This document shows, one piece after another, positions 1 through 20,845 of a stretch of 64,000 bases of DNA. Made by a program: the position numbers and the translations under genes. A model generated the notes under the pieces. That model saw only the letters and a list, made by a program, of their open reading frames with translations, was not told the origin of the DNA and ran no database searches. The stretch is taken from the NCBI GenBank assembly GCA_010015585.1, contig ML975182.1, one strand, 5' to 3'. Position 1 is the first letter of the stretch. Every line of letters begins with the position of its first letter. The stretch comes from Eremomyces bilateralis CBS 781.70 (Eukaryota).

Positions 1-88
1 ATCACGAGCGTAGCGAGTTACTTAAGTGGTATTGGTAGAATCAAAAACTTTTTATTGCCCTCTCATTGGCTAGACAGGGGTTCGCGAA

Positions 89-127
89 AGGAAACCACGT
101 GATTTATGAGAGGAAACCACGTGATTT
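89..127 (+). repeat. Direct repeat AGGAAACCACGTGATTT x2 in the Helitron 5' region
   Basis: Identical 17-mers at 89-105 and 111-127. Confidence 0.8.
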
Positions 128-291
128 CGATGCTTTTTACTGTTTACTTTCTGTCGCTCTCTTTCCTCTCCACCACTCTTCCCACATGGGCCTCGCAGGG
201 AGGCCTAACGGGCGTAGGGATACCAATCAATCAATCTACTTCTTATTCCTGATCTACCACTTACTTATCCTTCTATTATTACGCCTCCGAC

Positions 292-3200
292 ATGTCATCT
301 TCTGGAGACGCCGGTGGTAGAGTATGCTCGAATTGTAGGTCCTGGAGGGTTGATAAGGAGTTTACTTCGAAGCGTCGCCGACTACTGGTCAAGAAGTGCT
401 GGCGATGTCGTTACGGCCACGATCATGGTGATGCTGTAGGTAGAGTGAATGATTCGAATACGTTCAAGCTGACATCATTAGACCCCCTATCTTCGACCCG
501 CCGCTACGTCTACGCGAGACGCCTCGTCCTCGCAACCAACCGACACTGAGGACGATAGGTCTTGGAGGCGGGAGGCTTCCCTATTCCACCGTGCCGGAAT
601 ACATAGCCAAGACGATGGGGATAGAGCCGCTGCTCGCAGGGAGTATAATGCTATGTCACGGGCTCATCGCGCTGCTACTCGTCTACACCGTAATGTCCAG
701 CCGCTACCAACGTTCGGGGATTATCTCCAACGACGGAGGCTATCACCTTCACATCAACCGCAATCAGGTCAAGGTGCTCCTGATGATGGCGACAACGGGT
801 TTAGGCGTCTAAGTCCGATCTCCTTGGCCGGGTTATCCCAAATTCAGGGCGATGAGCAACCCCGTACACGTCATCAGGAAGATGAGCAACGCGATCGTAC
901 ACGTCAACGGACAGATGAGCAAAGCGATCGTACACGTCAACGGAGAGATGAGCAACGCAATCGTACACGTCAACAGCGAGATGATGGTCGTACAGAAGCA
1001 CTTCAGCGCGGAGATGTTCGCCTCGATCCCCAGTCCCGGGATTTCAACATCCAGGATGCCAATCTTTCCGAGCAGGATTGGGGATACGTTAAGGCCTTCC
1101 ACCAGGAGATGGCTAGTTTGAACCTTGAGCACTGCGCCCAATGTGACGAAAAATGGTTTGATATGCGTCTCGTGGATGGTATATGTCATCGATGTAGGAT
1201 CGACGATAGGAAACGAGGCGATTTACCACCGCTGTATTCCGCAGAGAATCATTTAAATCCTGGTCTGGGCCCGTCGCATCACAATCTTCCTGAGTTATCT
1301 CAAGTAGAGGAGCTCCTTATCGCCCGTGTCCATTGTGCTGTGGAGGTTCGAAAGGTTAACGGTCTTCAGTACCGTTATACAGGACATATCATCAACTTCA
1401 TGAGAGACGTGGGGCGCGTATACAATCGACTACCTCTCCTTCCGAAAGACCTTGAGATCGTTGTCCTTCGCCCTGCGAATTGGGATCAGGATCCCCGTAT
1501 GCAGCGCCAGTTTCGACGCGACTACCGTGTTCGCCGTACTGTCATCGAGCAGTGGCTAACCCATCTCAAGGTTCACCCCCCTAGATATCTGTCGTGAGCA
1601 GTTGCTAACCCATCTAAAGGTTTACCACCCCGGATATCGCGATGTCGTCGTCGACCCTAGCCGCGTGCAGCATCTTCCTATTGATGATAGTATTATGGAA
1701 GAGGTCGGCGTCCAGACTATTGAGGAAGAAGAGCTAGGAGGCGGCGATGACGATACGGGAGACGAGGTAGATTACGTCGCCGTAGTCCCGGATCTCCTCC
1801 AACCCCAGACGGAGATGGAGCAACTTCGGCAGCATGTCGATGATGCTCATGAACGTCGACGTGAGCATCTGACGATGCCTGAGTTTAGATTGACTCCTCT
1901 ATCTGAGTTTAACCACTCTCAGGCTCTTCTAAGCCTGGCGTTCCCAAGCTGCTTCCCCTGCGGTATTGGGGACTTCGTTCATCCCCGTCTCCGTAAGGTA
2001 GAGTATCGTGAATATATTAAGCATCTGATGAGGTTCCACGATGGTCGCTTTGCGAAACATCCGCGCCTACGGTATGTCCTTTTTAACACTCTTTTCCGGA
2101 AACAGGTCAGTACCCGTGCATCTTACTTCGTTCGTCAACGTCCTGAGCATAATGATCTATCTCTTGAGGAACTCCGTGCTGCTTTTGCGGATGACTCTCC
2201 TGAAGCCCAGGCCCTTCTGAACTCTATTATCCGTTTTTCAGGGAGTCTACGCGGCACGCGGCCCTATTGGATTGGGCGTGGTAAGCAGCTTGAAGCTACC
2301 GTGCAATGGTTTGGGTCTCCCGACATCTTTTTAACGCTGTCGGCCGCCGATTACCACTGGGATGATCTACAGCGTCATTTACCTCAATATGAGGAGTGGC
2401 GTAATGGATCTCCAGCGGAGCGGATCTCAATCTCACGCCGGAACCTCCGAGACTATCCCCATATCGCCGCCTTCCTCTTTCATCGGCGCCGTGAGGCTCT
2501 CTACAAGAATTTAGTAGATCCTAAGTTTAACATCCGCGATCAATGGGGCCGATACGAGTGGCAGGGTCGCGGCTCGTCGCACTCACATTTCCTCCTCTGG
2601 CTAGACCGTGCCTGCCCTAACAGCGAGCTTGATCGTATCCCTACGGAGGATCTCCCTGCCGCCCTTGAGAAATTTGCGCAGTTCTGGGGCGGTCACATCA
2701 CGGCGTTAAACCCCGAACCTTCCCGTCGGGTGCGACCAGAGGATGAGCGGAGTGCTATCGCGCTAAGTCCCCACACCCAGGAGAATATACTGGCCCATTA
2801 CTCGGCTATCATCAACCGTGTACAGAGGCACCACTGCAGTGATGCGTACTGCCTCCGTACGAATAAACGCACTGACCGGAAGGAGTGTCGTTTCTACGCC
2901 CCATGGCGGATCCGGGATGTGCCTGTGGTTACGAAGGATGAAGGCAACCCTAGGTTCTTTAACTTTCGCGGTATCCGGAACGATGATCGGTTAAATCACA
3001 GCAACCCTGCCCTTATCACAGCCTGGCTTGCGAATATCGATATCACGCCCTGTACAGGGAGTCGAGCAGTATTAGCGTATCTTGGAAAGTACTGCTCAAA
3101 ACCAGAGAAGAAGACGGCCACCTTCCACGATATCCTAAAACATCTCCTAACGATCGTTCCCGAACATACGCGCCGGCCATTCCTTTCGCTGACCACGAAG

Positions 3201-5555
3201 ATTATGAATCGTCTAATTGGTGAGCGGGATTGGTCAGCCCAGGAGGTTTCCCATATTCTTCTTGATCTCCCCCTCCAAGTCTCTTCACGCGTGGTGATTT
3301 CCGTCGATTGTCGCCCGGAGGTGGAGCAGCCCCAAGGAATTGAAATCCAGGACGATGGGACTATCCAGAGCGGCCTCTCCCCTCTTCAAAAGTATAAGCA
3401 AAGACCTGAAGCGTTTAACGACATTTCCTATCTTGAGTTTCTACGTTGCTATGAATTCGCACGGGTTAACTCAATTCGGAAGAGAGGAGAAGGGAAGGAG
3501 CGGGCGTTAAATTACTTCCCCCGATATTCATCGGTCGGCGATACCCGCGAAGACTGGTGTCGCGTTAAACTGATGCTACATCACCCCTTCCGCCGTATGG
3601 ATGATCTCCTCCGGCCCGAGCTTGATGGTCTGCTTTTTGCGTCGTATTCTGAGGTGTATTCCGCGTCTTGCGTGAATGGTCAGCATAACCATCCGGTGGA
3701 TCATTACGACCCTATTGTTCTTGCGGACGAGGATGAGTTTGAAGAAGGCGCCAATGAGGAGGAGGATCAGCAAGGGAGCTGGGATGAGCTCGCCGGTCAA
3801 CTGCCTGGTCGCGATAGAACCGTTCTAGAGGACCCAGATGCCCTTGGTCAACGACCTCTTGACCGTGAGTACGATTGGGCGTCCCATGTCGGGAAGTATG
3901 AGATTACGAAGGAGTGGTGGGCCACTGCAAAGGCCCAGTATCCCTATATTCATGAAGCTGTTCCCTTCGCACCTGATACCGTTGAAAAGCTGAACGCTAA
4001 ACAACGTATAACATACGATATCCTGACGACCCACTTCGCACACGTTATTGCGACAGGCACTCCTGGGCCTCAGCTTCTGATTAACGTTGATGGCGAGGCG
4101 GGTACAGGGAAGTCTTTTGTTATTCAGCTGATCTCCTCGCATCTCCAGGAGGCAGCTTCACGGCATAGATTACCGAACCCTGTTCTTCGTGCTGCGCCTA
4201 CGGGCGTCGCAGCTCACAGTCTCTCCGCGTCGACACTACATACTCTTTTCCGTCTTCCTGTCCAGAATATCAATTCTCTCGATCCCCTCCGGCCGGCTGC
4301 TCTTCAAGCCGCTCAGGCCACCTTCCGGGGTATACGGTACCTGATTATCGATGAAAAATCTATGATCGGCCTTCGCCAGCTCTCCCATATTGACCGTCGT
4401 TGCCGCGAGATCTTTCCTGGCGTAGACAAGTCTTTCGGTGGTCTCTGTATTCTCCTCTGTGGCGACTTCTTCCAGCTTCCTCCGGTCTTGGCAACTGCTC
4501 TTTATAACCAGAAGAGTCATCTAAATCTAGATGAACGGCATGGGCGTAGTATCTACTACCAATTCGAGCGAACGATCAAACTTGATGAAGTCGTGCGGCA
4601 GCAGGGTAATGACGTTGAGTCGATTCAGTTCCGCCAGGCTCTCGATCACCTGCGGATAGGCTCCGCAACTCGTGACGACTGGACACTGCTTAGTACACGA
4701 GTACAGGCCATGCTTCCGTCTGAGGAGGTAGCATCGTTTGGGGACACTCTCCGTATCTTTGGTAAGAAAGCGCCGGTCGCCGTGTATAACTACTGTCGTT
4801 TACGCGATCTCCGTTCTCCTGTTATGATATGTCGAGCTATTCACGAAGGAGGGGCGAAGGCAGAAAAAGTTCCGACTAATGAGGCAGGAAACCTCCATTC
4901 GGAGATTCCGATGGCGTTGGGAACCCGTATTATGTTGACAGAGAATCTCTGGACCGAACGAGGCCTGGTGAACGGTGCGATGGGAACAGTGCGTGATATT
5001 AGCTGGCAGGCTGGTGCTGATATCCATAAGGATCCTCCTTCCGTACTCCTCGTTCAATTCGATCGGTATGATGGACCGACGTTGGACGTAGGCGGCATTG
5101 GCTTGGTCCCAATCCTCCTATCACGCCGCGAGTTCTATATCGAGAATACTTCCTGCTCACGTTCACAGTTCCCGTTGACCATCGCCTATGCCATCACAAC
5201 GCATAAGTCGCAGGGAATGACTCTAGAACGGGCTGTGCTGGACATTTCGGAGCGGGAGTTCGCGCCTGGCCTGACCTATGTGGCAGTCTCCCGTGTGAAA
5301 AGCCTTAGAGGGATCATGTTTGAGGCTCCATTCGACTTGCAGGATTTGAACCCTCGCACGGAGAGCGAGACGATGAAGTTCCGGAAGGAGGATGCGCAGA
5401 GGAGGGAGAACCAGCATATCACGGCAGAGGTTTGTTTACATTATTTGAATCAATCGCGCGGTGTTGACATAGTGTAGGATATCCGACGGGCAGTCGGATC
5501 GTCATCCTCAATTCCGCTTTCTTCGCAGGCGGCACTGTTAGGACGGAGTTCATAG
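292..5555 (+). CDS. Helitron RepHel transposase (Zn finger, DUF6570-like region, HUH Rep, PIF1 helicase), four exons
   Basis: Exons 292-435, 482-1570, 1620-5429 and 5478-5555 join in frame via introns 436-481 (GTAGGT..GCTGAC..TAG), 1571-1619 (GTTCAC..GCTAAC..AAG) and 5430-5477 (GTTTGT..GTTGAC..TAG). Motifs: CxxC pairs, EWQGRGSSHSH (HUH), YLGKYCSK (Y2), GEAGTGKS (Walker A), IIDEKSMIG, GDFFQLPPV, AYAITTHKSQGMTL, YVAVSRV. Confidence 0.9.
851..985 (+). repeat. Coding minisatellite, 33-bp unit, about 4 copies (DEQRDRTRQRx)
   Basis: GATGAGCAA..CGATCGTACACGTCAACGG repeats, giving an 11-aa repeat in the RepHel N-terminus. Confidence 0.9.
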
Positions 5556-6047
5556 CTGGGTGGCGTGGATGCGGAGGATTTCCGGAAGGCGGAGAGTGAA
5601 TGCTGTAAGCAAGGTAGTTATGTGGCGCGAGATCAGGATCAAAACATCACTGTACGATCAGACGATCAGATGAGAAAAGGGGATCATTTGATTTCCTAAT
5701 TAGGAAGTATGCACTCGTCGCGAAGATGCTGTTTTTGAGCGATTCAACTATTTCCGTGTTTCCTCCCCATGATTAGGAATACCTTGATTAATAATCCTAC
5801 GGGGGGTGATGCTATACTCTAGGATGGGAGAGATCACGTGCTAGCTGCGCTCGTGATGATTTGGGGCAGAAAGGTTGCCTTTATGCACCACTGGCCTATT
5901 TTTAGAAATCTGCCAGAACGGCCAATGTCTACCCACTGGCAGGTTCAGAAGCTACAGGTTCCTACTGTGTATAGTCATGTTGCCAAGTCACGATGTGTGA
6001 CTTCGCTTAATAGCTTCAAATTCCAAACTGACCTCTCTTCTCTCTTA

Positions 6048-6465
6048 CCCATCCACCCTGTAACTACATACTAGCCACGTGACCTAGGAATACTGTGCTC
6101 TGATTAGTCTATTTCGAAAATCCCTACAGCGCGGGCACCCCACCACCTATTCCGGGCACCCCTACAACATATTCTAGGCATCCCCCATTACCTGTTTTGG
6201 GCACCTCCACCACCTATTTTAGGCCCTACAATCACCCATTTTGGATACCGTTTATTACTCCCGCCTCCGTTTTGGGCACAGGTGCTAGAAAGGGTGGTTG
6301 GGAGTGCCCGAAAACGGATGATAGAGGGTGCCTAAAATGGGTGATGATGGGGGTCTAAAGTTAGTGGGGGGGAGTGTGCCTAAAATAGGTGGGGGAGGTG
6401 CCCAACAAGGGGAGTAGGGGTGCCCAGAACGGGTGGTGGGGGTGCCTAGAATGGGTGGTGGCAGT
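6048..6465 (-). mobile_element. Truncated, inverted copy of the foldback MITE at 13481-14054
   Basis: Reverse complement aligns to about 13595-14010. Internal ~20-bp repeats of type CCACCCATTTTAGGCACCC. Several differences are transitions. Confidence 0.85.
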
Positions 6466-6783
6466 GCCATTGTGATAACAATGAGGAGCAGAGAACCTGC
6501 CAGCGAGCGTTATTATCGGGTCCATCGATGGAGCAGAAAAAAACCTGCCGCAGGTTTGCCTAATTGGGCGAAATACGAGGTGGCGGTGCGCTAAAAAAGC
6601 CACATTTCGGGATGTGGACCTGCCGGCAGGTTTTCACCACTAAAAAGTAGACATACACCCATTCTGGCGCTAATATCGAACCTGCCATGAATCTGCTACG
6701 AATCTGCCACTATTTAAGTAGACAAAGCCACCTGCCAGCGCTATTATCGAACCTGCCGGCTTCGAGGTAGACAAGGCCTTAGT
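6466..6783. mobile_element. Short non-autonomous element 'A' with repeated ACCTGCC motifs
   Basis: 6466-6587 is an inverted copy of 13297-13418 and 6712-6783 an inverted copy of 12062-12133. It abuts the MULE transposase right after the DCTYKT motif. Confidence 0.75.
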
Positions 6784-7683
6784 CTTGTACGTACAATCTA
6801 AGATCAAGACATCATGGTGGTTTTGGAGTACTTCCAAGGACCGCCGGTGAGCGAAGAAAAGGTGAGTGATCCGCCTCGTTTCTGGGTCATATTGGTGGCT
6901 GGTGATTAGGTCGGTTCGCGTGCTAAGTTCCCGTAGAAGTGCTTGAATATAGGACTGTCCTTTCAAACGGTGGAGCTTCAAAAAGTCGCGTCGATTATAT
7001 ATATCTCTCCTGATCAAATCTGTGCCGGATTGGATGGCGTTATAGATCTGTTTTGGCGTACATCCAGCCATTGTCATCTTGTCAATTTCCTGCTTCTGTT
7101 CCACAGTCAATTTGAAGTGGCTGCGGTGAGCTGATGCCGAGGAGACAACGTTATGGTTATGCCCTAAAACCACGGTATGAATAACCCAACGCCGCGTATC
7201 ACGGTCGAGTTTGGTCTTAACCGCCCATCCACAGCCGGTTTTCGAGCTTCCAGTCTTGCGGAATAAGGACGGGATTTTGAGAGGCTTTCCGGACCGATCG
7301 CACTCGAACCAGGCACGATTCTTCTCATCCCAGTACTTATCGGTAAAGGTCTTACCTTTACGGATACCGAAACGCCGATCACGCGTGTATTGGAGGAGAT
7401 ATTGGTAGGCATCGTCGATATCCTTTCAGCCTTGATCAGGCTGGACCGGTGGGGCGGAAAGATTGATATAGTCCTCCTGTATCGTATTTAGGAAGTCGTT
7501 GAAGAAGGAGTCAGGTAAGTCCTCTATATCTTGGTCGATCTCATCGCTAATCTCCTCATCTGCAGTCGCAAAGCTCTCCTCCATATCACTGTCTCCAGCC
7601 TCACTTCCCTCCTCATTTCCACCAAAATCTGACGAATCGAGATACGGGACTAGGCCTAACGAATTAGTTGGGCGGAGAGCCAT
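6781..7683 (-). pseudogene. Mutator/MULE (FAR1-like) transposase, 5' half
   Basis: One frame from 7683 with a single premature TGA at 7426-7428. FAR1-like FECDRSG..GC..HNH, then HLFFAH..DVLILDCTYKT, where it is truncated. Confidence 0.85.
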
Positions 7684-7794
7684 ATTTAGGAATATGGGGT
7701 CACGGATAGGAAACCGGAGGACCCCGAAAAACAGAGAGTCAGAGACATTCTGATCTCTGACAGTTGATATTTAATACTTCTATATCACCATTTC

Positions 7795-7982
7795 TGTTAT
7801 GGGTTGAAACCCTTGGTTGGCTCAGGCTGAGAGCCTAAGCCTGATTAGGTTAAGGGTAAATCAGAGTCCAACCTCTCCGATGTAAACAAGAAAGCTTCCC
7901 TTTGTTGTTCTCTTCTTTAGCTTAATCTAGAATATCTTTGGCTACGTGTATGTTGTGTGCATCCAGCTACCGTGCCGTAACA
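7795..7982. mobile_element. Solo LTR, 188 bp, without TSD
   Basis: TGTTA...TAACA termini. Nearly identical to 38057-38244. Flanks ATTTC and TTGCC do not match. Confidence 0.9.
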
Positions 7983-10226
7983 TTGCCAAGCAGTCTATAG
8001 AGGGGATCGAGCCACAGTAACAGACACTGTAATAGAGACAGGTGAAGATGAATAAGATAGAGTAGGGGAAGGTATAGGAGCAGGTGCAGGGATCGACACA
8101 GATATAGAAGTAGTTATAGTGTTCGTAACTAGTGTAGATGTAGGAATTAACACGGCGACAGAGGTGTTTAGGTGTCGTAAGACCTCAGCAAGTGTTTGAC
8201 CCTGAGATTAAGGAGGAGGTTGAAATCGAGGAAGAGAAGCCGGTGCACGTCGTTCAAAATCTTATGGATCTCGACGAGTTATAGCATTCGTAGCTAGTGC
8301 AGATGTAGGAATTGACACGGCGACAGAGGTGTTTACGTGTCGTAAGACCTCAGCAAGTGTTTGACCCTAGGGTTGGGGAGGAGGCTGAAATTGAGGGATA
8401 GAAGGTGGCATACGTCGTTCAAAAGCTAATGGATCTCGACGAGTTGATGCCTCGTTCTTCCTCGGTGCACCTCTTGTTTGAGCAGGAAGCGGCTCTAGGA
8501 TAGATTAATATGGCCTTGGAGAGAGACTCATTAACAGTCCTTGCTTACGTTGATAGCGCCAATGATCGTCGTAGTCGTTTAGTCGTAACGTCGATCCAGA
8601 ATTCATCATATCTCATAGCGTATGATGACATGGAAGACCGTTTATGGCATCAAAGAGGCCAGAACAGGGATGTCCGCTGCGACGTTGCGTCTGCTCCTTC
8701 TGGCGCAGCAGATCCTGTTGTCTAATGCGTTCGATTGCCGGTGGCGTAAGAATGTCATGAATGCCAGGAGGTAGTAACGGCATTGACTCTAGTCTATGCT
8801 CGAATTTAACGCTGTGTTTAGAAGAAGCAATCTTTTTCTTATACTTGTTGTATTGACTCTTAACCATCTGCTCAATCCTTCTAACAACACGCAGCAAGTC
8901 GCCTCTTGAAGTCATAAGGTAGTCCTTTAATACCTTATATATTCCTTCAACAGGAGAGGTTGTAATGGTATTGTAGTGTCGATACTGAGACGTCCAAGCA
9001 GCTGCCCACTCAGTGCGTGGGTTCCACTGATTTTTGCGTAAGTATTGGCAAAGCTCTGGCTGGTCAGCATAGTCTTTAAGTAACTCGTCCCACTTCAACT
9101 CAAACGTAAGTAGTCCTTTTGCGTAGACAAGCTGCTCTAGTTAGTTCTATGAAAGACTTATAAGAGGCCATTAGCGAGGAGCATACCTGACTCCAACGTT
9201 TCATAAATTGACCCCGTTGGTCGGTGATTCTTTGCTTCTCCTCTTTTGTCGCGCCATCAGCGTCTCGCCAGGTCTTTTGAGCCTTTGTTTGCACATTCTT
9301 ATTGATATGCCATACGCACAGGAGTTGTGGAACACCTGGAAACAGAGTGCGAGCTGCCAGTTCACCGCATCCTCTTGATCGCTAATGAACACGCGTGGCT
9401 ACGGTGTCCCGGTCTTGAGGAGGAAGTTCGAGATCGCCCAATGGTAATCTTCTTCTTTCTCGCTGTGGAGGAAGCAGAACCCTGCAGAGAAGAAGGTCTG
9501 CAGATTGGTGCAGCCGAGTATGTGCAACAGTGGGAGTTTGTACTGGTTGGTTCGGTACGTACAGTCTATCAATAGGATATCGGGATTCGCAAGCAGTAGC
9601 TCGATCTGCTTCTGGTGGGCAAAGAAGAGACCTTGTACGTGATTATCCGCGTCCTTCTTAACAGTAAAGACCCATTCCGGCGTAGATAAGTCATCTAGTA
9701 ATGTCTCAATCGGACTCCTCCCATTCAAGTGCTTCTCTCTAATTGCCTTCCTCTCGCTGCGGATATCGGTGGCAGAGACTAGCGTTTCCGGGTCCTCCTT
9801 TTAAATAGCAGCCATTATCTGCATCGGCCGCACCCCGGCATGTTTCATTGATTCAATTATGTCTTTCTGTACTGATGTACGCCTGCGATAGACATTATGC
9901 GCACTAGGGTTAAGTGATCGGGGGTGGTTGTGATGCTTGTGTAGCACATCTAGCTTCCACTGGTCGTCATTTTTATACTTGAATATGACAAGCTTAAAAT
10001 TACACCCTATTGTGCATGTGCTTGTGCTTATAATCCTTGCTCTTGACTGATAGTTTCCGGATCGATCACAGTGATAGTAATATCGCGTCTTTATAACAGA
10101 ATCTTGAGGTTTGCTCCGTTTGAGTATAAAGCCGTAACCATGCTGCATACCATGGATCTTGAGAGCGTTGTAGGCTTCTTCATAGGATACGTGAAGACCA
10201 TCTGGAGGAGGGGCGATATCCTCCAT
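7983..10226 (-). pseudogene. Second MULE transposase, degenerate
   Basis: ORF pieces YYHCDRSG..GC..HNH, GLFFAH..LLIDCTYRTNQYKLPL, FISDQE, TTSPVEG..LK, and SWIM-like CSG..GLPCHH, broken by stops and frameshifts. Confidence 0.9.
8122..8446. repeat. 165-bp tandem duplication in the MULE 3' region
   Basis: TTCGTAACTAGTG at 8122 versus TTCGTAGCTAGTG at 8287; many differences are transitions. Confidence 0.85.
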
Positions 10227-10439
10227 GCTAAGGTCTATGAGAGAAGGAATAGATTGAACACTGATAACTAATTGATATTTGTCCCTAGGCGAAGACGAAG
10301 GAAATTACGCGCTAGGCCCAGTTGAGCGATTAATTTCCACCATTACTAGCGGGGAGGAAAAATCTCTCAGGGATGAAAACCCCACAATACGGGAGGAAAT
10401 ATCTCACCAGCCAAATCTTTATAAATCACTTTGAAGCTA

Positions 10440-10637
10440 GTCCTAATGAAGTAGTTTACCGATTTACCGATTTCGCCGATATTGACAAAATTTAACGGAT
10501 AAAATATCCGTGTAATAGAAAGGTTGCCGATATGAATCGGTGAATCGTATCCGCAAACCCGAAAGGTTGACGATATCGGATCCGTGCCGATATCGTACCT
10601 GCAAAATCGGGAAATCCGCCAATCGGGAACAGCCCTA
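10440..10637 (-). mobile_element. hAT-like terminal fragment
   Basis: Minus strand begins TAGGGCTG followed by many CCGAT/ATCGG subterminal motifs. No convincing partner TIR or TSD. Confidence 0.5.
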
Positions 10638-10731
10638 ACCATGGGAGTCGGTCAGTGGGTTATATGGGGCCCGAAGACCTTACGGCACTTCGTTCCTCCA
10701 GGCACATACGTTCCTCCAGGCACAGCCTCGA

Positions 10732-11676
10732 TTAGCCAGCCTGCTCGTTGGGTATCTGTGTGTTCACATCTATGTCTTCACAACCATCCCTGGCCTCAAG
10801 CTCAGCAGGTTGAGGGCCTCTTATCCTCTGTCCAAGCTTAGTAGCTTGAGGCCCTATTATTCCCAGCTCGTGTACTGGTAGGTGTTGACTTATAGGCGTC
10901 AAACCTCTCTTTTGCTTTTCCAATTTCCTCTTATCTACCGCTTGTTGCCAGGCCATACGAGCGATTGCTCCTAGAGCTATTGCTAATCCAATTCCGAGAC
11001 TGATACCTACGCCCAGTGTAGCAGTGTTGCTACACTTTTCCGGTGCGTATGAACCTCCACTAGGTGCCGGGCTTGAGTTGGAAGTACTGTCAGAAGTAGG
11101 GTAGGTATTGTTTCCCGCGTTTCCAATAGTTTTTATTTCGCTTAAGAAAAGCCGGCCGATGTCTCCATCCGTTATAAGGAGTGAACGGTTTTGGCAACAG
11201 CTTTCTTTATCGCTAGGGTCTCTGCAGCACCAAACTCCTCGTTTACATGGCTCAATAGCGTATCCCATGGCTCTTTTCCCAAACACAGGTGCAACTATGG
11301 TTTAGTTGTTAATATCACACTTTGGCTAACTTAGTGCGGATGATGCACCTTAATTGATTGGTGTTCTCTTACCAGGATTACAGAAGCTTGGACACTCTGG
11401 AGATTTGCCTGTAGGATCGGTACACCCATTCTGAAAAACCAGACCTGGATAGGTATAGCGTATAGGTTGACAGAGGCCAGTTGTACGGCATACATCAGGT
11501 CCGATCTGGGCCGTTGCACAGCATGCACTGTACTTTGCCGAAGGGTCGCAAGGCTGCATGTTGATAGGGTCGCGGGGTTGTCCATTGGCGCCAAAACATT
11601 CTCCATTCACAGATGTGATAACCACAAAGGGTGATATCGATAAGAGGCGCAGGAGGATATTTAGAGGTTTAAACAT
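10732..11676 (-). CDS. Cys-rich type-I membrane protein (signal peptide, CC motifs, Ser-rich stalk, single TM), one intron
   Basis: MFKPLNILL.. signal, ECF..PC..SACC..C..GLC..GCTDP..CPSFC, GTAAGA donor near 11372, then PC..WCC..SCC and TM LGVGISLGIGLAIALGAIA. Confidence 0.75.
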
Positions 11677-12061
11677 TCTGTTGGTTATTATAGTACTAAC
11701 CAGGGAGAACTGAATAATCACAGTTTATATTGGCTAGCTAATATCAGACCAAACGAAAGATAAAGAAGAAGGAAATGAGGAAGAGAAGGCGGAACACCCT
11801 CCTTAAATAGTGCTTAACTTGCTTGTGCAACCTCGCGTAGCCTCTTAACCGTTATACGACATATTTCAGTTTTGGTCAAGCTGCAAGTGTTACGATCATA
11901 TTTGTTGGTTTTAGATTACCCTACTTCATACTGAACAACCAATCATGTTACACTAGACTTACCTTGTCACAGGATACACCAGTTTGCCTATGTTATAATC
12001 CTGACTCTACTTGTGGTATTTGAACCACCAATCGGGTTACGTCAAGAGTCGCACAGTGACC

Positions 12062-12133
12062 ACTAAGGCCTTGTCTACCTGAAGGCCGGCAGGTTCGATA
12101 ATAGCGCTGGTAGGTGGCTTTTTCTACTTAAAT
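12062..12133. mobile_element. Element 'A' second copy, left part
   Basis: Inverted match to 6712-6783. Confidence 0.75.
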
Positions 12134-12279
12134 ACAGTTAGACCTCGTTATAAGAATACGGGTATATAGGAATATCGGGTTACAGGAATAGGTTTCGCCA
12201 GATTTTCGTCAAAAACCTAGTATATTGCTCGTTATAAGAATTATAAGAATATTCCAATCTTAAAAGTCAATATTCTTAT
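12134..12279 (+). mobile_element. pogo/Tigger-like MITE, left arm
   Basis: TA-CAGTTAGACCTCGTTATAAGAAT start resembles pogo-type TIRs. The inverted arm (AATATTCTTAT) is cut by the LTR at 12280. Confidence 0.55.
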
Positions 12280-13296
12280 TGTGATGGAGTGGACTTCCAC
12301 CATGCACACAAGTCACCAGATTTGGGTCACGGGACTTACCACTTCATCACTTGTAGACTTTACAACCTCCTGTTGACGTAGACGTAGATTCTTCCCTCTT
12401 CATAGATGAATCTAACTTGTTACGTTACTACCTTGATTTTACATCATCCAGTATCAATCCGTGACACTATTCATCTATCTTCCCTGTGGAGATCCAGACA
12501 AATCTTCATCCGGAATATATCTCGAATCGATTCGTTGTATCGCTAGCCGACGTTTATCCGGAAGCTCCGATCGACGTTAATCCGGAAGCTCCGATCGACG
12601 TTACAACCAATACCCGAACTTCATACGTTCCTGGTAACCAATAGCCATCCATCAAGAAAGAACCGAATACGAATGATGTCGGACCAATCCGACGTCGACT
12701 ACGCCACTGCGGCTGGTGGCACCCAACAAACCACTCAAAGCACACTGCTCAACCCGAAATGAGCAAGCCAAGGGCGTTCATGCGACAACCCCATGTCCCG
12801 TCCAGAGCTAAGACGCAATCGATGGCCGCGGGGGTACAGTACCCCTCGCTGAAGAAGAATGAAAGATTTGCTCTCCTGCCTATCCTAGACGAACATACCA
12901 ATGACACGTCGGGAGTGCAAATCTACGAAGAACCACCGCCTCCCCCTGACTACTCGAGGTCTGAAGACAGCCCGCCTTACTACCTGAGCGTGGACGTGGA
13001 GCCAATCCAAGACACCCTCACACAGGAAGACTTCATCCTCCTATGTCAGAAGAGTCCTCAGAAGTGGTTCGATGCAGTGGCCAACACTGCCTTCCGCGCC
13101 TCTGCGTGACCCACAGGATGGAATTTGGACAATGGCAATGATGACGCATCGGGAGATCAGTAAGGTCTATAGAGAGCTCTTCGAGCAGGACGTAGCAGCC
13201 TTTGATTGGGCAAGTCTCCTGAGACGCGCGTGGGGATTCCGTGTTCGCACATCTAGATCCGGCGCGCCTCAGGGTAGGCCCGTTCCCGGTCAACGG
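12280..13296 (+). mobile_element. 5' part of a Ty3/gypsy-like LTR retrotransposon: LTR 12280-12466, leader and possible gag start
   Basis: TGTGATGGA...TCCGTGACA termini (187 bp). ATTCATCTAT (12469-12478) is complementary to ATAGATGAAT (12402-12411). 24-bp tandem repeat at about 12548-12602. ORF 12759-13109 is truncated. Confidence 0.65.
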
Positions 13297-13418
13297 ACCG
13301 CCACCTCGTATTTCGCCCAATTAGGCAAACCTGCGGCAGGTTTTTTTCTGCTCCATCGATGGACCCGATAATAACGCTCGCTGGCAGGTTCTCTGCTCCT
13401 CATTGTTATCACAATGGC
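13297..13418. mobile_element. Element 'A' second copy, right part
   Basis: Inverted identity with 6466-6587 over about 122 bp. Confidence 0.85.
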
Positions 13419-13480
13419 CCCTCTACATCGTCCAAACCACCATCGCTGATCGGATCTACGCTACCGCCGCCGTATACGGC

Positions 13481-14054
13481 AAGGGAGATACTGCATCTAC
13501 ATCCCAACCTGCCCTGCAACTACATCCCAGCCACGTGGCCTAGGAATACTGTGCTCTAATTGATCTATATCGAAAGTTCCTATAGCGCGGGCACCTGTAC
13601 CACCCATTCTAGGCACCCTTACCACCCGTTTTGGGCACCCCTACCACCCTTGTTGGACACCTCCACCACCTATTTTAGGCACTCCCCCCACCGACTTTAG
13701 ACCCCCATCGTCACCCATTTTAGGCACCCTCTATCATCCGTTTTCGGGCACTCCCAACCACCCGTTCTAGCGCCTGTGCCCAAAACGGGAGCCGGGAGTA
13801 ATAAACGGTATCCAAAATGGGTGATAGCAGGGCCTAGAATAGGTAGTGGAGGTGCCTAAAACAGGTGATGGGGGATGCCCAGAATATGTTGTAAGGGTGC
13901 CCGGAATAGGTGGTGGGGGTGCCCGCGCTGTAGTGATTTTCGAAGTAGACTAATCAGAGCACAGTATTCCTAGGTCACGTGGCTGGGATGTAGCTACAGG
14001 GCGGATTGGGATGTAGATGTAGTGTTTTAGGGATGTAGATGCAGCATCTCCCTT
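13481..14054. mobile_element. Foldback/MITE with long TIRs and internal ~20-bp repeats
   Basis: AAGGGAGATACTGCATCTACATCCC...GGGATGTAGATGCAGCATCTCCCTT ends. The arms also share GCCACGTG.CCTAGGAATACTGTGCTCT. Confidence 0.85.
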
Positions 14055-14348
14055 ATTTGATATTCAAGTTAATGTTTTGCAAGTTATTAGGACTTCAGCA
14101 ATAGCTTCCATTCCCTCAAATACCCTTCCTTCAAATTGTAAGTCAGTTGCACTGCCTACTCAGGCGACTATGTCCAAGCCACACTACTGTAGGTGAAGCG
14201 TGTCAGCTACCTTAAGTACAAGGCTTCAGTCGCACAGTTCTATAAACTAAGTTGTTTCGATTCTGTATTCCATATATTTCATACACAGAGAACAGAGTCA
14301 AGAGTGGGTGCCAACTCAAAGCTTCTGCACATTTTATCGAACACGGAA

Positions 14349-17174
14349 ATGGCCAAACTGTGCACTCTATGTGCGGCAGCTCATGCCAACTTCCTGCGAA
14401 GACGCTCGAGATATTCCGATGAGGAAACAGTGTTTTATTCCTGGCTCCGAAAAAGAAGCACGTCTCGCTGTCCGCTTTGTTGGTTATTTCGGAAGACCAC
14501 CTGGACATCCACGCCGGTGGTCTTATCACCCTGGCTAACCTTACGGGACGATGCAGAGCTACTTGTGAATTTAGAAATGGATGATTTGGCATGCATGCTA
14601 GGCTTCAGGTCTGATGCCGTTCAATATCGGGAAAAAGAATATGGTGAGAGCTCAGCTGAAAGCCTGGTGGGGGTCTTCGTAGATTGGTCTCGAATGAGCG
14701 AAGCGGACGAAACCTACGGGTTTATGAGGATGAGCGATAAGGTTGTAAACTTTCAACTTCTTCTCGAATGGTTACAGGAGTGTGACGAATGTTTCCCCGA
14801 GGCAAATGCACGGCAAATCCTGGATGACATGAATCGCAGGGCAACCGTGCCGCTCAATCTAATCGATTGCCATTCTCGCAAGGTAATAGAAGGGGACTGG
14901 TCCAGCAGATTTGCTGCATTAAGTTACGTTTGTAAGTGTCATATGCGCTACAGCAACTTCTTTATGAAGCCATCTGAATCACGACTGACAGAGTCAATAG
15001 GGGGCGAACCGCAGCAAAAGTCCGACCCTGGTGCATCTCGAGCAGTTGTGCCATATGGGTTGCCTGAACTGCTTCCTAAAGTTGTCGAGGATGCAATAAC
15101 AGTTATATTGAAAATGGGACTTCAGTTTCTTTGGGTTGACAGGTATTGTGTGGAAACCGATGCGACTGTTAAGCATCAGCAAATTGCTGCGATGGACCAA
15201 ATCTACTCGGGCGCAGTCTTCACAATTGTTGCGGCGGTAGGCCAAAGCGGCGATGAAGGTCTCCACGGGATTTCCGAGGTCCGAAAGGAAGCGCCATACG
15301 GCGTCGACGTTGGTCGATTTTCATACATTCAGATCAAAAGTGACCCATTGAAGAGGTTCCAGTGTTCCAAATATCAACAAAGAGGATGGTACGTCACTGT
15401 TTCAACCCTCTAAATGGCTACTTACATGCTTCTAGGACATATCAGGAATTCATCCTTTCCAGTCACTGCTTCATATTCGAGGCAGATCAAGTCGTTTTCT
15501 TGTGTCGAAACCGGGGCATCACCAAATACGAATTGAAGACTTTGCCATGCCCCTCGATAGCTCTGGATAGGAAGCATGTCGCCAATCACGATACTCCTAT
15601 CTTTGACCACCGTCTTCTCTCCTACGTCGTTTCCAGGGACCAGCAACAGCCATCTCTTGAACCATGGATGCATGCAACATTTCGCAAGTCGCCCAGGGCC
15701 CAGAAACTTCCGCCTCTTGAACCATGGATCCATTCAGCATTTCGCGAGGTGACAGAACCACCAAGCGAGACTGATGATCCAAACTCAGATGACAATATGA
15801 GTTATGGAGTCGATCACCAGGATGAATATGATATGGAGCTTAGAATGGAAGAGGATATTAGAGATGAGTACTGTCGCGGGCCAGGTCAACTGGACGAGGA
15901 TAACGTGATGGTAAATGCGTTGGATAGGGAGAACATATTCTGGAAGAAGAGGCTGGACGAGTACACGGAAGAACGTGGGACGATTCTACGGGAACAAGAA
16001 TTTGAAGAAGTACGGGCGCTTGAAGAGAAACGCATCAAAGAGCAGAAGCGGATTCATGATGAAAGTCGGGTCCAGAAGGAGCTCCGACAAAGGGAACTAT
16101 ATGAAGCCCAACAAGAGCAGGAGTGGGAACAAATGGATGAAGATATGAGGCAAGCGGAGATCCGAATTGAAGCACCTTTGTCGGGGGACGAGGCATGGGA
16201 TGAAATGTCGAGCGAGAACGAGCCCGAAGCGGGATCCGAATCCTGGCCGAGGGAGCGAAAACCAAAACTAGAGGAGTCCAAGGTTGCTTTTGTGCTCTCC
16301 GTTTTCGAACCATACATCAGGAACTACTCTTCTCGACAGCTCACGTACAGCTCCGACGCCCTTGCCGCGATCCTATCAATCCTACAGTTGTTTTCGAGTG
16401 CGGTCGCCGAATTCCGTACCTACTATGGAGTTCCATTTTACTATGGCACACCTCAGTCCAAGCCCCGTCTGCCTCTCTGTCCAAATCGCACTTATGTCCT
16501 GAACCTCGCCACAGGACTATGCTGGAGCCATGGGAATAGAGACCTGAAAGCTATAGTACGTCGAAATCCGCGATTCCCAAGCTGGAGCTGGCTAGGCTGG
16601 GAGGGACGGATTTCTGGGTGGCTGCCGGACCTATCCAAATCATTCATCCTTGCCTCTGATTCTATCTTCCAAAGAGATATAGATTTTAGCAATTCTGACG
16701 CTGAGCTCGAGCAGAGATCCTTGGGACGGATAGCACCCCCCAAGTTAAGCATTCAAGCAAGTTGTTGGTCCCTCACATTCCGCTGGGGCAGAAACGACAA
16801 GTCTCTCTTTCCAGATCCAAATCCAGGATATCTCGATGCCACTCAGCTGATCTCAAGGGCAGATTCGGATAGTTTTGATCAAGGTTACTACATGGAAAAC
16901 CCAGACAATCCTCTCCAGGAAGCGCGATTGGAATTATCTTGGTGCTCCATTCCGGGCCAGGACCTTCACGCTCGCCTTTGCCGTGAGAATTGGATTGGAG
17001 TGCCCCCTGGCTTCTAAGAGAAACAACAAGCAGACACCGGACGACATATATATGCTGGTCGTTGGGAGAATCTATCCAGAACATGGCGATCTGGAACGTA
17101 TTGGCATTATTGTGATACCGCAGTCCTTTCTGTATGGCCAGATACCACAGAAGCGACAGTTTTGGTTGGGTTGA
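14349..17174 (+). CDS. HET-domain (heterokaryon incompatibility, TIR-related) protein with a frameshift near the C-terminus
   Basis: LNLIDC, FAALSYVW|G, LPKVVEDAI, LWVDRYCV, MDQIYSGA, RGW|TYQE, YSSRQLT, FPSWSWLGW. Introns 14932-15000 and 15389-15435. An extra C in 17003-17007 shifts off the ..ERIG..WLG tail. Confidence 0.85.
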
Positions 17175-18255
17175 AAAGATTCCAATGGTACTTTCGCCGA
17201 TTCCCTAAGTCATGGGCTTCGCTCTCACGCAGAATCGAGGCGCAGCGAATATTTCCACATTTTCAGGGCGCATGGTCGATTGGTTGCCTTGATCCAGGCG
17301 CGACGGGCCGAGAAAGAATAGCGGGGAAACTATCTTCCTGTGCCCTCAGTTCAAGTTCATGAGGCTGCGCTGGTATATGAACTTGACATTCGACAAGTCA
17401 TGATACCAATGACCAGATACAAACCAGTTTCACCGCACGAGAATGATACAATCCCGACCCCCTGGGCGGCTAGGCCACATGGCATGTCTGTATTCAGCTT
17501 GCAGGGTTCCGACCGGCGCGAATGGGACTAAAACCGAATCAGAAGGAGTTTCCGCAGATCCTCGGCGAGATGAGACGAGACGATGATGACGCAGTTGATC
17601 TGAACAGTTGACGCCCACAGGGACGCGACATGGCCGTCCATGACCGAATCAGGACAATTACATCGTCTCAAAGCCTGGAAGTTGTCGCCCTTAGCCAACA
17701 TCCTCGCCCTCTGGGCCGAAGATAGAAACCTCTCAGCTGACTCGTATTATTATCTCATCAGGTTGGATCACCCTCGTTTTGAATCCTCCTCGTTGTGAAG
17801 CTCACGGCCTTGCCGGTCAATCAGCCTTTCTACTATTCAGTTGTCAGTCGTTCCCCGCGTTCTTATACTCTGCTATTGCTTTTTTATACGCACGTCCTCT
17901 CTTATTCTTCATCCATCTCCCTCCTTTACTCGTTTGACGACTCACACGAGCATAAACTCGAGTCGATTGCTGTAAGATACCACCGCTGACATACAAGAGC
18001 CTGCGATTCATTGGACGCCATCGCAAGCCCATTTTGGGAGCTTGCAGCTTGCAGCCATCCAGCTGGACGCTGCATACTTCACCATCTCATTGTCACTGGA
18101 TTTTGTTGTCCAACTCCGCCAATCTGCTCCTCTGCCTTGCGCAAGGTTACCAACCATTCCCCCACTTCACCAGTCTTGATAAACCATCCTACACTCTCAT
18201 TGTTCCATCCAACCCATCCTCATGTAAATCATCAACAACAAAGCCCCATCTCACC

Positions 18256-20845
18256 ATGGCCTACTACGACAGCGGCATCAACATGGGGCCAGACCAGCAT
18301 ACATATCCCCCTAAATCAGGACACGACTATTCGCCCGAGTACCCTCCCGCTTCCGACACTTCGCACCATTACGCCTCGCCCTCCGCGTCCTACGTCCCGT
18401 CCTCTGAGCTTGGCGGTCGTCCGCGTGCCTTGTCCAACATCGCTCCCGACGCTTCCATGCCTCCTCCTCCATCACCTCCAGTGCAATCGCAAAGACAGGT
18501 TCCGCCGCTCCAGCCACTACACCAACAGCCCGGATCAAGTCCCGCACAGCAGCCTATATACGATGCTGTTAATCATGTCTTCGACAATGCTGCTCGGTCG
18601 AACCAGCTCCCGAACGACATTATCTCCCAGATCGCGGAGCAGGTGCGCACCCAGGTCATTGACAGTTTGAAATCCGAAGGACTGGCGTATCAGCCTCCGA
18701 ATAGCACTCAACCGTCATTTCCTTCGCAGCAGGTCCCGCTAGCACATCAGCAACAGTCATTTAATCCTCGCACCAGAACTAACCCATCCCCGCCATCTTT
18801 CACACCTCGAACGACCGTCTATACTCCACCGTCCCCACACGGCCACGGTCAGTTCCCCAGTGGTTCAGTTACCCCAGAACCCCCAGCGCACGACCCACAT
18901 TTTTATAGCCACAAGGAAGATGCTTCGCCACCCAAGCGAGAAGAATCGCAAGTGAAGAAGGAGGATCTTTCGGAAATATATGGTGAGCGAACAGCATCTT
19001 CCGTTGAAAATTCTTGGTCCAGTCAGAATCGTCCGGAGAAACCGCAGCGAGTAATGACAAATGAGGAGGAGACGACACTGGAGAAGATCTGGCAGCCCTT
19101 TTTCGATTTGGATGGAAATCCAACGGCAAGACTGGGCCAGTTCCTAAGGGGAATTGCGCTTCACATCGTATGTACCAACCGATTCGGGAGAAGGATCAGA
19201 TTAGCCAACCGCATTTGTAGATTGAGGACTACAAACCAAAGAAGAGTCTTGTCATCACGCCAGCCAAGATGCAACGCTTCTACGAAGAAGTGAAGGTCAC
19301 AGACGAAATATATCCTTGGAACAGTAAGCCCAATCGATCGATTACCGTGGGAATATCGACATGCTCATGCCCAGGACAGCTATCTTTGGCAAGCTCAGCA
19401 ATTCTGCGGTTTGCAAAATTTATCGCCACCTCCACTGCCAGCACCACCTCGTTCAAGAATCATACGGCGATGTTCCTTTCATTCCCGCGCTCACCCCAGA
19501 CGGCTTCCAGACCTGGATGACGCTCATGATTCAAGGACACGTTGAACTGGAATTTGCACGACTTGCGAAAGTCCTTGTCGCATTTCCTATCGGCAATGCC
19601 GATGACCGCAAAGAGCGATTTCCAAAGGAACTCTCTCGGCGCCTACTTCCAAAAGTCGATAATATGCATGCCAAGCAGCGCTGCGTCGCTGCCATCTCCA
19701 CTGACCCGCTTGTGACTGTCCGTGATTCCGTCTCATTCCCCCCACCGCCGCCCACTCAACCGCCTTCAAGCTACGACGCCGCACAAGATCGCACACACCT
19801 CGGTTCCCAATCCTCTACAACCTCTAGCATACCTCCGCATGAGCCTAGTGCCCCGCCCTCCCGAACCCATGTAAAAGAAGACCATAAGGACACTCCTCCA
19901 GTATCCTTCAAGGAGCGCGAACGAAAACCCTACGTGGCCAAAGAAGGCCTGGGGAAAATCTACAACGACCCCGCGCTCTCCAACCATATTACCCAGCCAT
20001 ATAACTACACCGGTTCTACCCAACCGCCAACTAACCACCATCCTCCTCCCTCAACCGCCATCTCCATCCCTCAACCATCATCAGCCACGCAAGCACCCAA
20101 CCCATCATCCACTCGTGCCCGCCGCTCGGACTCTACGGCAAAATCCTACACCCCCTCCACCGCGCCCATCGGCATCCCCCTATCGACCGCCACCTCTGGT
20201 TCTAGCGCACGTGATGTCTCGATGAGTGCAACGGAGAACGACTGGTATGGCACCTCACCGATGACGGGGTTGGGGGCAGAGTACAGCGGGCGATATCGCC
20301 CCGGGAGTGCCTCGAAGCCAGGAGGTGGGGAATCGGCGTGGCCTAGCAGCCCGGGGTCGAGCTATCCGGGAGGTGGTGCCACTACAAGGGATAAGGCGAG
20401 GTTGAGCGTTGGGGGAGGTGCAGGATCGATGCCTGGGGCCGTAACGGGGGCGTATACGCGAAGCGAGGGGACGGTGCATGATATCCCGGCGGGGTACTAC
20501 CAGAGTAATTTGTATGCAGAGGAGGGAAGGGCAGATGAGGTAGATGGGATGAGAGTGGGCATGACTACGGAGGAGAGGTGGAGTGCACGGGAGAGGGAAG
20601 ACGAAAGGGAGCGAGATAGACGCGACTATGCACAATGTGTGGCTGAAGAGGAGGGAAGATATCCGGTTGATAGGTATGAAAAACCGGGGAAGTACGAGGA
20701 TGGTGGGTATGCCTGGGCGAAGGAGCGCGAGAGAGATTGGGATAGGGGTCGGGAAAGGGACAGTTACAGGGAGAGGGAGAGGACTAGGGAAAGAGAGCGA
20801 GATAGGAGCGGTGGATATTACGATGACCGACGCAAGTATTACTGA
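18256..20845 (+). CDS. Pro-rich fungal protein with a conserved central domain (DUF7514-type) and an RD/RE-rich tail
   Basis: EETTLEKIWQPFFD..PTARLGQFLRGIALHI, CQHHLVQ..IPALTPDGFQTWM, NADDRKERFPKELSRRL. Introns about 19168-19220 and 19324-19379. Confidence 0.75.

Follow-up and report, generated by a model that had tools for sequence, protein, structure and literature searches.

For few gained introns has it been possible to name the sequence from which they came (PMC4974935). One proposed route is tandem duplication at an AGGT site, a model put forward by Rogers (1989) and set out in PMC4974935 and PMC3265369. This classical model rests on a handful of natural cases, and clean examples are few. 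Here, we describe a candidate in a 64,000-nucleotide (nt) stretch of DNA from Eremomyces bilateralis CBS 781.70 (contig ML975182.1 of assembly GCA_010015585.1), which we call the window and number from its first letter. The candidate is intron 2 (1571-1619, plus strand) of the predicted RepHel gene of a Helitron transposon. We consider it likely that this intron was gained by tandem duplication of an AG|GT-bearing coding segment, in the manner that Rogers envisaged. An original prediction, made from the letters of the window alone, had proposed the same origin; the repeat, the exact skip of one unit, the restored frame and the single-motif homologues all hold.

The described systems each share part of this picture. 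The vertebrate ATP2A1 intron is said to have an age of more than 420 million years, and splicing reached 6-16% in a construct that re-enacted the model (Hellsten et al. 2011, PMC3265369). From the description in that source, ATP2A1 and the Helitron locus have in common a duplicated AG|GT that gives both donor and acceptor, the removal of one unit with the peptide left unchanged, and a branch point and pyrimidine stretch that come from coding sequence. In contrast to the ATP2A1 intron, the Helitron intron still aligns to both of its flanks at 84%, has a short, fungal length of 49 nt, carries a donor far from the consensus and lies in a transposon gene. Two fission-yeast genes contain exonic tandem repeats of 24 base pairs (bp) that hold AGGT, and expressed sequence tags show an intron spanning the duplicates, as PMC4974935 reports. 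There too, a short AGGT-holding exonic segment of a fungus was duplicated in tandem; however, these are host genes with several 24-bp copies, two or four of which are spanned by the intron, whereas our locus has a single 49/50-nt duplication in a Helitron and an intron equal to one unit.

Two further cases are described as tandem-duplication gains. The source sequence of the potato RdRp intron has been identified (Ma, Lan and Niu 2016, PMC4974935), as is the case here, but that duplication spans an existing intron-exon boundary and most of its signals came from the parental intron, whereas all the signals of intron 2 come from coding sequence. In Neurospora tetrasperma, a filamentous ascomycete, intron NCU09740T0-2 and the adjacent exon are 100% identical along 614 bp (Sun et al. 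2015, PMC4317165); this resemblance to the adjacent exon, which its authors read as tandem-duplication gain, is shared by the Helitron intron. Given that identity, the Neurospora intron is very recent, in contrast to the one described here, which is 49 nt long, 84% identical and common to diverged transposon copies.

With regard to its host, the element resembles the autonomous Helitrons of Fonsecaea, Fusarium, Metarhizium, Talaromyces and other fungi, sharing their order of DUF6570, Rep and PIF1 and aligning over positions 15-1480 of a profile of homologues. It differs from them in that the best identity is 49% (among the best 120 of 198 homologues) and in that their loci have an uninterrupted motif at the place of the junction. 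Among the matches listed for intron gain and Helitrons, judged by titles and the opening of abstracts, there was no intron gained inside a Helitron gene. The case fits the classical model on every feature tested, and is set apart by its multi-copy Helitron host, its 49-nt size, its alignable flanks and its weak donor.

A duplicated coding segment between two Helitron frames

Tandem Repeats Finder (TRF) reports positions 1539-1638 as a tandem repeat with a period of 49, 2.0 copies, 84% matches and a score of 144. In 100 dinucleotide-preserving shuffles of the whole window, the highest TRF score at a period of at least 20 was 61, and none of the 100 reached 144. Therefore, the 49-nt repeat is confirmed as real and not a product of chance. 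Unit 1 (1539-1588, 50 nt) and unit 2 (1589-1637, 49 nt), both on the plus strand and delimited by TRF and pairwise alignment, are identical in 42 of the 50 columns of their global alignment, the rest being 7 mismatches and one single-base gap; the longest exact run common to both is 12 nt. The two AG|GT-bearing stretches that had been noticed 49 bp apart, at 1547 and 1596, are both present: the matching stretches 1547-1573 and 1596-1622 each end in AAG|GTT (1568-1573 and 1617-1622). Positions 1539-1570 of unit 1 are exonic and 1571-1588 intronic, while 1589-1619 of unit 2 are intronic and 1620-1637 exonic.

The repeat sits between two long plus-strand open reading frames, 482-1597 and 1560-5477. 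Pfam finds DUF6570 (E = 2e-22) in the first, and Helitron_like_N (E = 1.7e-38) and PIF1 (E = 1.5e-22) in the second. Because of this domain set and of homologues in filamentous ascomycetes, the gene is, as judged from its sequence, the RepHel gene of an autonomous-type Helitron, with Rep (HUH) followed by a PIF1-like helicase. Exon 2 (482-1570, plus strand, 363 codons) holds the N-terminal region with DUF6570 and ends in ...EQWLTHLK, and exon 3 (1620-5429, plus strand, 1270 codons) starts with VYHPGYRD and contains the Rep domain, as Helitron_like_N, and the PIF1 helicase. Once 1571-1619 is taken out, both exons read in one frame (HLK-VYHPGYRD), as had been foreseen. With the outer exons added, the join of 292-435, 482-1570, 1620-5429 and 5478-5555 gives a single frame of 1706 codons. 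Against a profile of 20 homologues, the spliced protein forms one domain with a score of 2013 that is gapless at the junction after residue 411, and the alignments of homologues extend to the end of exon 2. In contrast, retention of intron 2 leads to a stop at codon 420, the in-frame TGA at 1595-1597 (plus strand) that ends the frame 482-1597.

Contigs of one sequencing run skip exactly one unit

Contigs from three sequencing runs were aligned to positions 1-20000 at 80% likeness. Runs X1 and X3 are marked as DNA and come from one sample; run X2 belongs to a different sample and study and carries the mark 'RNA? (a guess)'. The original prediction had pointed to the 1570/1620 junction as the place to look for splicing. 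In X2, one contig carries the joint 1567>1617, which skips 49 nt, with at least 140 letters on each side and six ambiguous letters at the joint; the joint is seen in no contig of X1 or X3. Among the seven possible placements, GT..AG fits only at cut +3, which gives 1571-1619. A contig that skips this segment is not what a purely frameshifting, unspliced duplication, the outcome that the prediction had set against its own claim, would lead one to see.

Three other joints were likewise present in X2 and in no contig of X1 or X3. The first, 435>482, is a 46-nt GT..AG skip in one contig and defines intron 1 (436-481, plus strand; GTAGGT...GCTGAC...TTAG) together with the 3' end of exon 1 (292-435, plus strand; an open frame of 48 codons from the ATG at 292). 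The second, 5427>5476, is a 48-nt skip in three contigs that fits at cut +2 and defines intron 3 (5430-5477, plus strand; GTTTGT...TTGAC...GTGTAG), followed by exon 4 (5478-5555, plus strand; 25 codons and a TAG stop, which is codon 1707 of the spliced coding sequence). The third, 7511>7563, is a 51-nt skip in one contig that fits at cut +3 and defines an intron at 7515-7565, outside the gene. The larger deletion-type joints 483>5171 and 4982>5254, on the other hand, are present in X1, X2 and X3. Moreover, about 116 letters of the stretch 14932-15434, which an X3 contig follows colinearly, are missing from a 6824-letter X2 contig, and across 10.7-13.3 kb the depth of X2 is down to 1-50 while that of the DNA runs stays level. 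From the skips, the missing letters and the drop in depth, we infer that X2 is an RNA run. On this understanding of X2, the evidence from contigs indicates that 1571-1619 is removed from RNA.

Collapse of the repeat during assembly was considered and rejected: since the units share at most 12 consecutive identical bases, a 31-mer assembler is unable to collapse them. Another candidate donor, GTGAGC at 1594, was rejected too: paired with the acceptor at 1619, it would give a 26-nt intron, the wrong frame and a mismatch with the RNA joint.

The intron at 7515-7565 (plus strand; GTAAGT...GCTAAT...CTGCAG, 51 nt) is a separate observation. The obvious open frame at that place is on the minus strand, and the spliced transcript may be antisense or read-through.

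Splice signals taken from codons

Intron 2 is a phase-0 intron of 49 nt with the donor GTTCAC and the acceptor AAAG. Its length equals the repeat period, and its donor GT and acceptor AG lie at the equivalent AG|GT sites of the two units. A putative branch-point motif, GCTAAC (1604-1609, plus strand), would put the branch-forming A at 1608, with 11 nt separating it from the 3' AG. The motif is a copy of the TGG-CTA-ACC codons (W-L-T) at 1553-1561, which bears out the proposal that the branch point would be duplicated W-L-T coding sequence, and its placement resembles that of GCTGAC in intron 1 and TTGAC in intron 3. As in U2-type introns, GT-AG ends and a branch motif near the acceptor are present, with a spacing like that of the RNA-supported introns 1 and 3. 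A GTT donor is also used elsewhere in this organism, in Helitron intron 3 (GTTTGT, three X2 contigs).

Intron 2 is built from 18 nt of unit 1 and 31 nt of unit 2 and holds no base from outside the duplication. Every one of its bases can therefore be traced to the flanking exons, and donor, branch point and acceptor are all derived from codons. When shifted against itself, intron 2 reaches an identity of 0.76, whereas the other three introns (1, 3 and 7515-7565) reach 0.33-0.39 (the best being 0.39, for intron 1). Its GC content is 0.49, next to 0.53 in the exons, 0.39 in intron 1 and 0.38 in intron 3. An origin by the same kind of duplication was rejected for introns 1 and 3 and for 7515-7565, which have no likeness to their flanks.

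Homologues carry a single, uninterrupted motif

With the N-terminal 500 residues of the second frame as query, 198 proteins were returned at E <=0.001, the best 120 of which were examined. Those named by source are from filamentous ascomycetes and show the DUF6570, Rep and PIF1 domain set. In 93 of the 120, a blastp alignment of the exon-2 frame reaches the site; the other 27 were dropped, their alignment being absent or ending short of it. All 93 have the motif once and uninterrupted, with the spacing of the spliced product: RVRR, five residues, W-L (W-I in one), two residues, L, three residues, and H-P-G-Y or close variants. Across an alignment of 20 diverse homologues, the W, L, L, H and Y of the motif are invariant and the P and G are at least 90% conserved.

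A scan of metagenomes yielded 76 homologous loci, of which six cover the site by a strict motif pattern and nine by tblastn with a homologue segment. In all nine (L001, L002, L003, L005, L006, L007, L010, L012 and L040) the motif lies in one frame with no intron, although L040 looks decayed, with a stop 14 codons beyond the motif. In the other 67 of the 76, tblastn gave no match over the part of the protein that covers the site. The unrelated intron that homologues could have carried here, which would have spoken against the prediction, is thus absent from 9/9 covering loci, and relatives, distant ones of about 50% protein identity or less, appear to be without an intron at this position. Since the homologous loci use other codons at the places of CTAAC and AG|GT, these two features are particular to the lineage studied here.

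The comparison with homologous Helitrons that had been suggested as a way to find the unduplicated, intron-less form was successful in part. The distant homologues do have a single motif and no intron; the immediate ancestor was not found, as these protein searches returned no same-species gene model and no unduplicated close relative. Therefore, the polarity of the change is judged from homologues that are distant and from what the intron itself contains.

Opposite fates of the two halves of each unit

The halves of the repeat units show opposite fates, with coding capacity kept in one and decayed in the other. The invariant W (TGG) is retained in the exonic half of unit 1, whereas its counterpart in the intronic half of unit 2 is TTG (L), with a 1-nt deletion upstream. 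Conversely, H-P-G-Y is retained in the exonic half of unit 2, and its intronic counterpart in unit 1 reads P-P-R-Y (H>P, G>R). The changes that destroy conserved residues are confined to the halves that are spliced out.

Between the intronic halves and their exonic counterparts there are 7 substitutions in 49 nt, and the neutral divergence since the duplication, estimated from the intronic halves, is about 6-27%. At that divergence, the probability that no stop would have arisen in the 3810 nt of exon 3 is at most 2e-4, and exon 3 would therefore have been translated since the duplication. The first 25 codons of exon 3 (1620-1694) encode conserved residues, and the first in-frame ATG comes only at 1695; thus, this segment can be translated only if it is joined to exon 2. 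For the same reason, we rejected the idea of two separate unspliced proteins.

The Helitron family and the age of the duplication

No second copy of 1-6000 was found in the whole window by blastn. Summed contig depth over 1-6000 in X1 and X3 is about 10 times that of the single-copy bins beyond 14 kb, although depth gives copy number only approximately. The contigs of the DNA runs also include diverged and internally deleted Helitron variants. These data point to a multi-copy family. One paralogue in the DNA runs, about 18% diverged, covers 1299-1901 and differs in net length by 2 letters; it therefore carries the duplication too. Thus, the gain is older than the split of these copies. A multi-copy transposon as host also means that many copies could be compared to date the gain.

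How the intron may have arisen, and the alternatives

By the proposed mechanism, the ancestral segment (...TVIEQWLTHLK-VYHPGY...) would have held CTAAC (L-T), a pyrimidine-rich stretch and AAG|GT (K-V) in a span of about 20 nt. Through a tandem duplication of roughly 50 nt, the RepHel coding sequence would then have acquired a second such block 49-50 nt downstream. The spliceosome could take its donor from unit 1 (GT, 1571), while unit 2 would supply both the branch point (GCTAAC) and the acceptor (AG, 1619). Because the path from the first AG|GT to the second AG removes exactly one unit, whatever its length, the original frame and peptide would come back. In this way, an out-of-frame duplication can be rescued by splicing.

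It is tempting to go further and speculate that the duplication itself would have created the intron in one step, that its splicing would be efficient, and that the intron-bearing Helitron would have gone on to multiply. We hold this fuller scenario tentatively, with somewhat less than even confidence: a single-step duplication of about 50 nt would have made an intron that is spliced in the main form of the transcript despite its GTTCAC donor, and the Helitron would then have multiplied and diverged, spreading the newborn intron in the genome. If true, this locus would be a natural minimal system for asking with how little 5' splice-site information a short fungal intron can manage when the branch point and the acceptor are strong.

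Several observations weigh against a gain by duplication. On the side of RNA there is a single contig, from one run whose RNA type is guessed or inferred, and contigs give no splicing efficiency. X2 also holds a joint of its own that is not canonical, 5291>5340 (CG..TG, a 48-nt skip, in the same contig as the deletion joint 4982>5254); therefore, not every X2-specific joint is an intron, and this one may stem from a variant copy or from the alignment at 80% likeness. A junction between direct repeats is the type of product that template switching by reverse transcriptase can mimic. At high identity, no DNA contig is listed over 1539-1638, the only one there being that of the diverged paralogue. 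Relatives closer than about 49-53% protein identity were not found, and a search with the exon-2 frame among proteins of 204-650 amino acids gave four hits at 44-53%. Finally, the donor is as weak as had been predicted: measured against the consensus (A/C)AG|GT(A/G)AGT given in PMC3265369, AAG|GTTCAC matches only at the GT and the exon-side AAG and is without the +3 purine, the +5 G and the +6 T. A donor so far from the consensus bears on how short fungal introns are recognized.

The strongest of the alternatives, which we nevertheless consider unlikely, is that the duplication is an unspliced frameshifting lesion and that the X2 skip comes from another copy or allele, read as transcript or DNA, that was never duplicated. 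Such a copy would yield an identical junction sequence, and this explanation draws on the single contig, on the fact that X2 differs in sample and study from the DNA runs, on the very weak donor and on the existence of at least one run-specific non-canonical joint in X2. However, the skip occurs in none of the X1 and X3 contigs, though the variants 483>5171 and 4982>5254 were recovered in all three runs, and X2 also skips the two other Helitron introns and 7515-7565. As the paralogue diverged by about 18% is still duplicated, an unduplicated lineage would have to be older still. Moreover, both frames have stayed open and conserved although the units have diverged by about 16%, and 1620-1694, a segment with no start codon, is conserved as well.

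A template switch of the reverse transcriptase or the polymerase chain reaction (PCR) between the 84%-identical direct repeats, with one unit lost in the complementary DNA, is very unlikely. Direct repeats do flank the junction and share six letters exactly at it, and, as Hellsten et al. describe (PMC3265369), a duplicated construct left standard reverse-transcription PCR blind to the difference between spliced and unspliced RNA. Against an artefact of this kind, the skipping contig is unbroken for at least 140 letters on both sides and accounts for a depth of 627 out of the 742 summed for X2 in this bin, which suggests, without proving, that the skipped form is the main one. In addition, one of the seven placements gives an exact GT..AG with CTAAC 11 nt upstream, and the argument from selection requires the frames to be joined in vivo.

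That an older intron already stood at this site, its likeness to the exons being secondary through gene conversion or chance, is the most improbable of the three: a phase-0 AG|G is a common intron site and there is no close relative with which to date the gain, but all 49 nt align to the flanking exons in register with a shift equal to the intron length, the GC content is like that of exons rather than the 0.38-0.39 of the neighbouring introns, and the intron is absent from 9/9 homologous loci. None of the three alternatives explains the upkeep of both frames together with the conserved segment that has no start codon.

Element boundaries and other repeats in the window

Within exon 2, positions 863-984 hold a 33-nt tandem repeat (3.7 copies, 88% matches) that is in frame and encodes acidic/basic units of 11 residues (..DEQRDRTRQR..); in-frame repeats therefore stay coding in the RepHel gene. 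A comparable contrast is seen outside the element. A 60-nt tandem duplication at 15633-15745 (1.9 copies, 83% matches, score 163), inside the plus-strand frame 15344-17017, is in frame with two ..LEPW.H..FR.. units, and an X2 contig covers it without a skip. The in-frame 60-nt duplication thus stays coding, whereas the out-of-frame 49/50-nt duplication persists as an intron.

The Helitron probably ends before about 6048, because another repeat begins near that position. This second element (6048-6783) has two inverted arrays of a 22-nt unit (6133-6218 and 6388-6468) and recurs inverted at 12062-14009 in pieces that are 92-99% identical, so that the inverted copies bracket about 5.3 kb. On the side of the gene start, many DNA and RNA contigs break just after 216, behind a GC-rich hairpin (GGCCTC..GAGGCC), and this place has the appearance of a boundary of another repeated element. 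Positions 1-17 match 5841-5857 in inverted orientation (17 nt, 88%), which may reflect either chance or a terminal inverted repeat that continues beyond the edge of the window.

Elsewhere in the window, 7338-10672 is a very high-copy repeat with many variants, with a summed depth in the DNA runs of about 70 times the single-copy level, and a 165-nt tandem repeat lies within it at 8112-8445. The strongest tandem repeat in the window is at 45517-46032, with a 126-nt unit, 4.1 copies, 95% matches and a TRF score of 920; as its unit is a multiple of three, it may encode a protein repeat.

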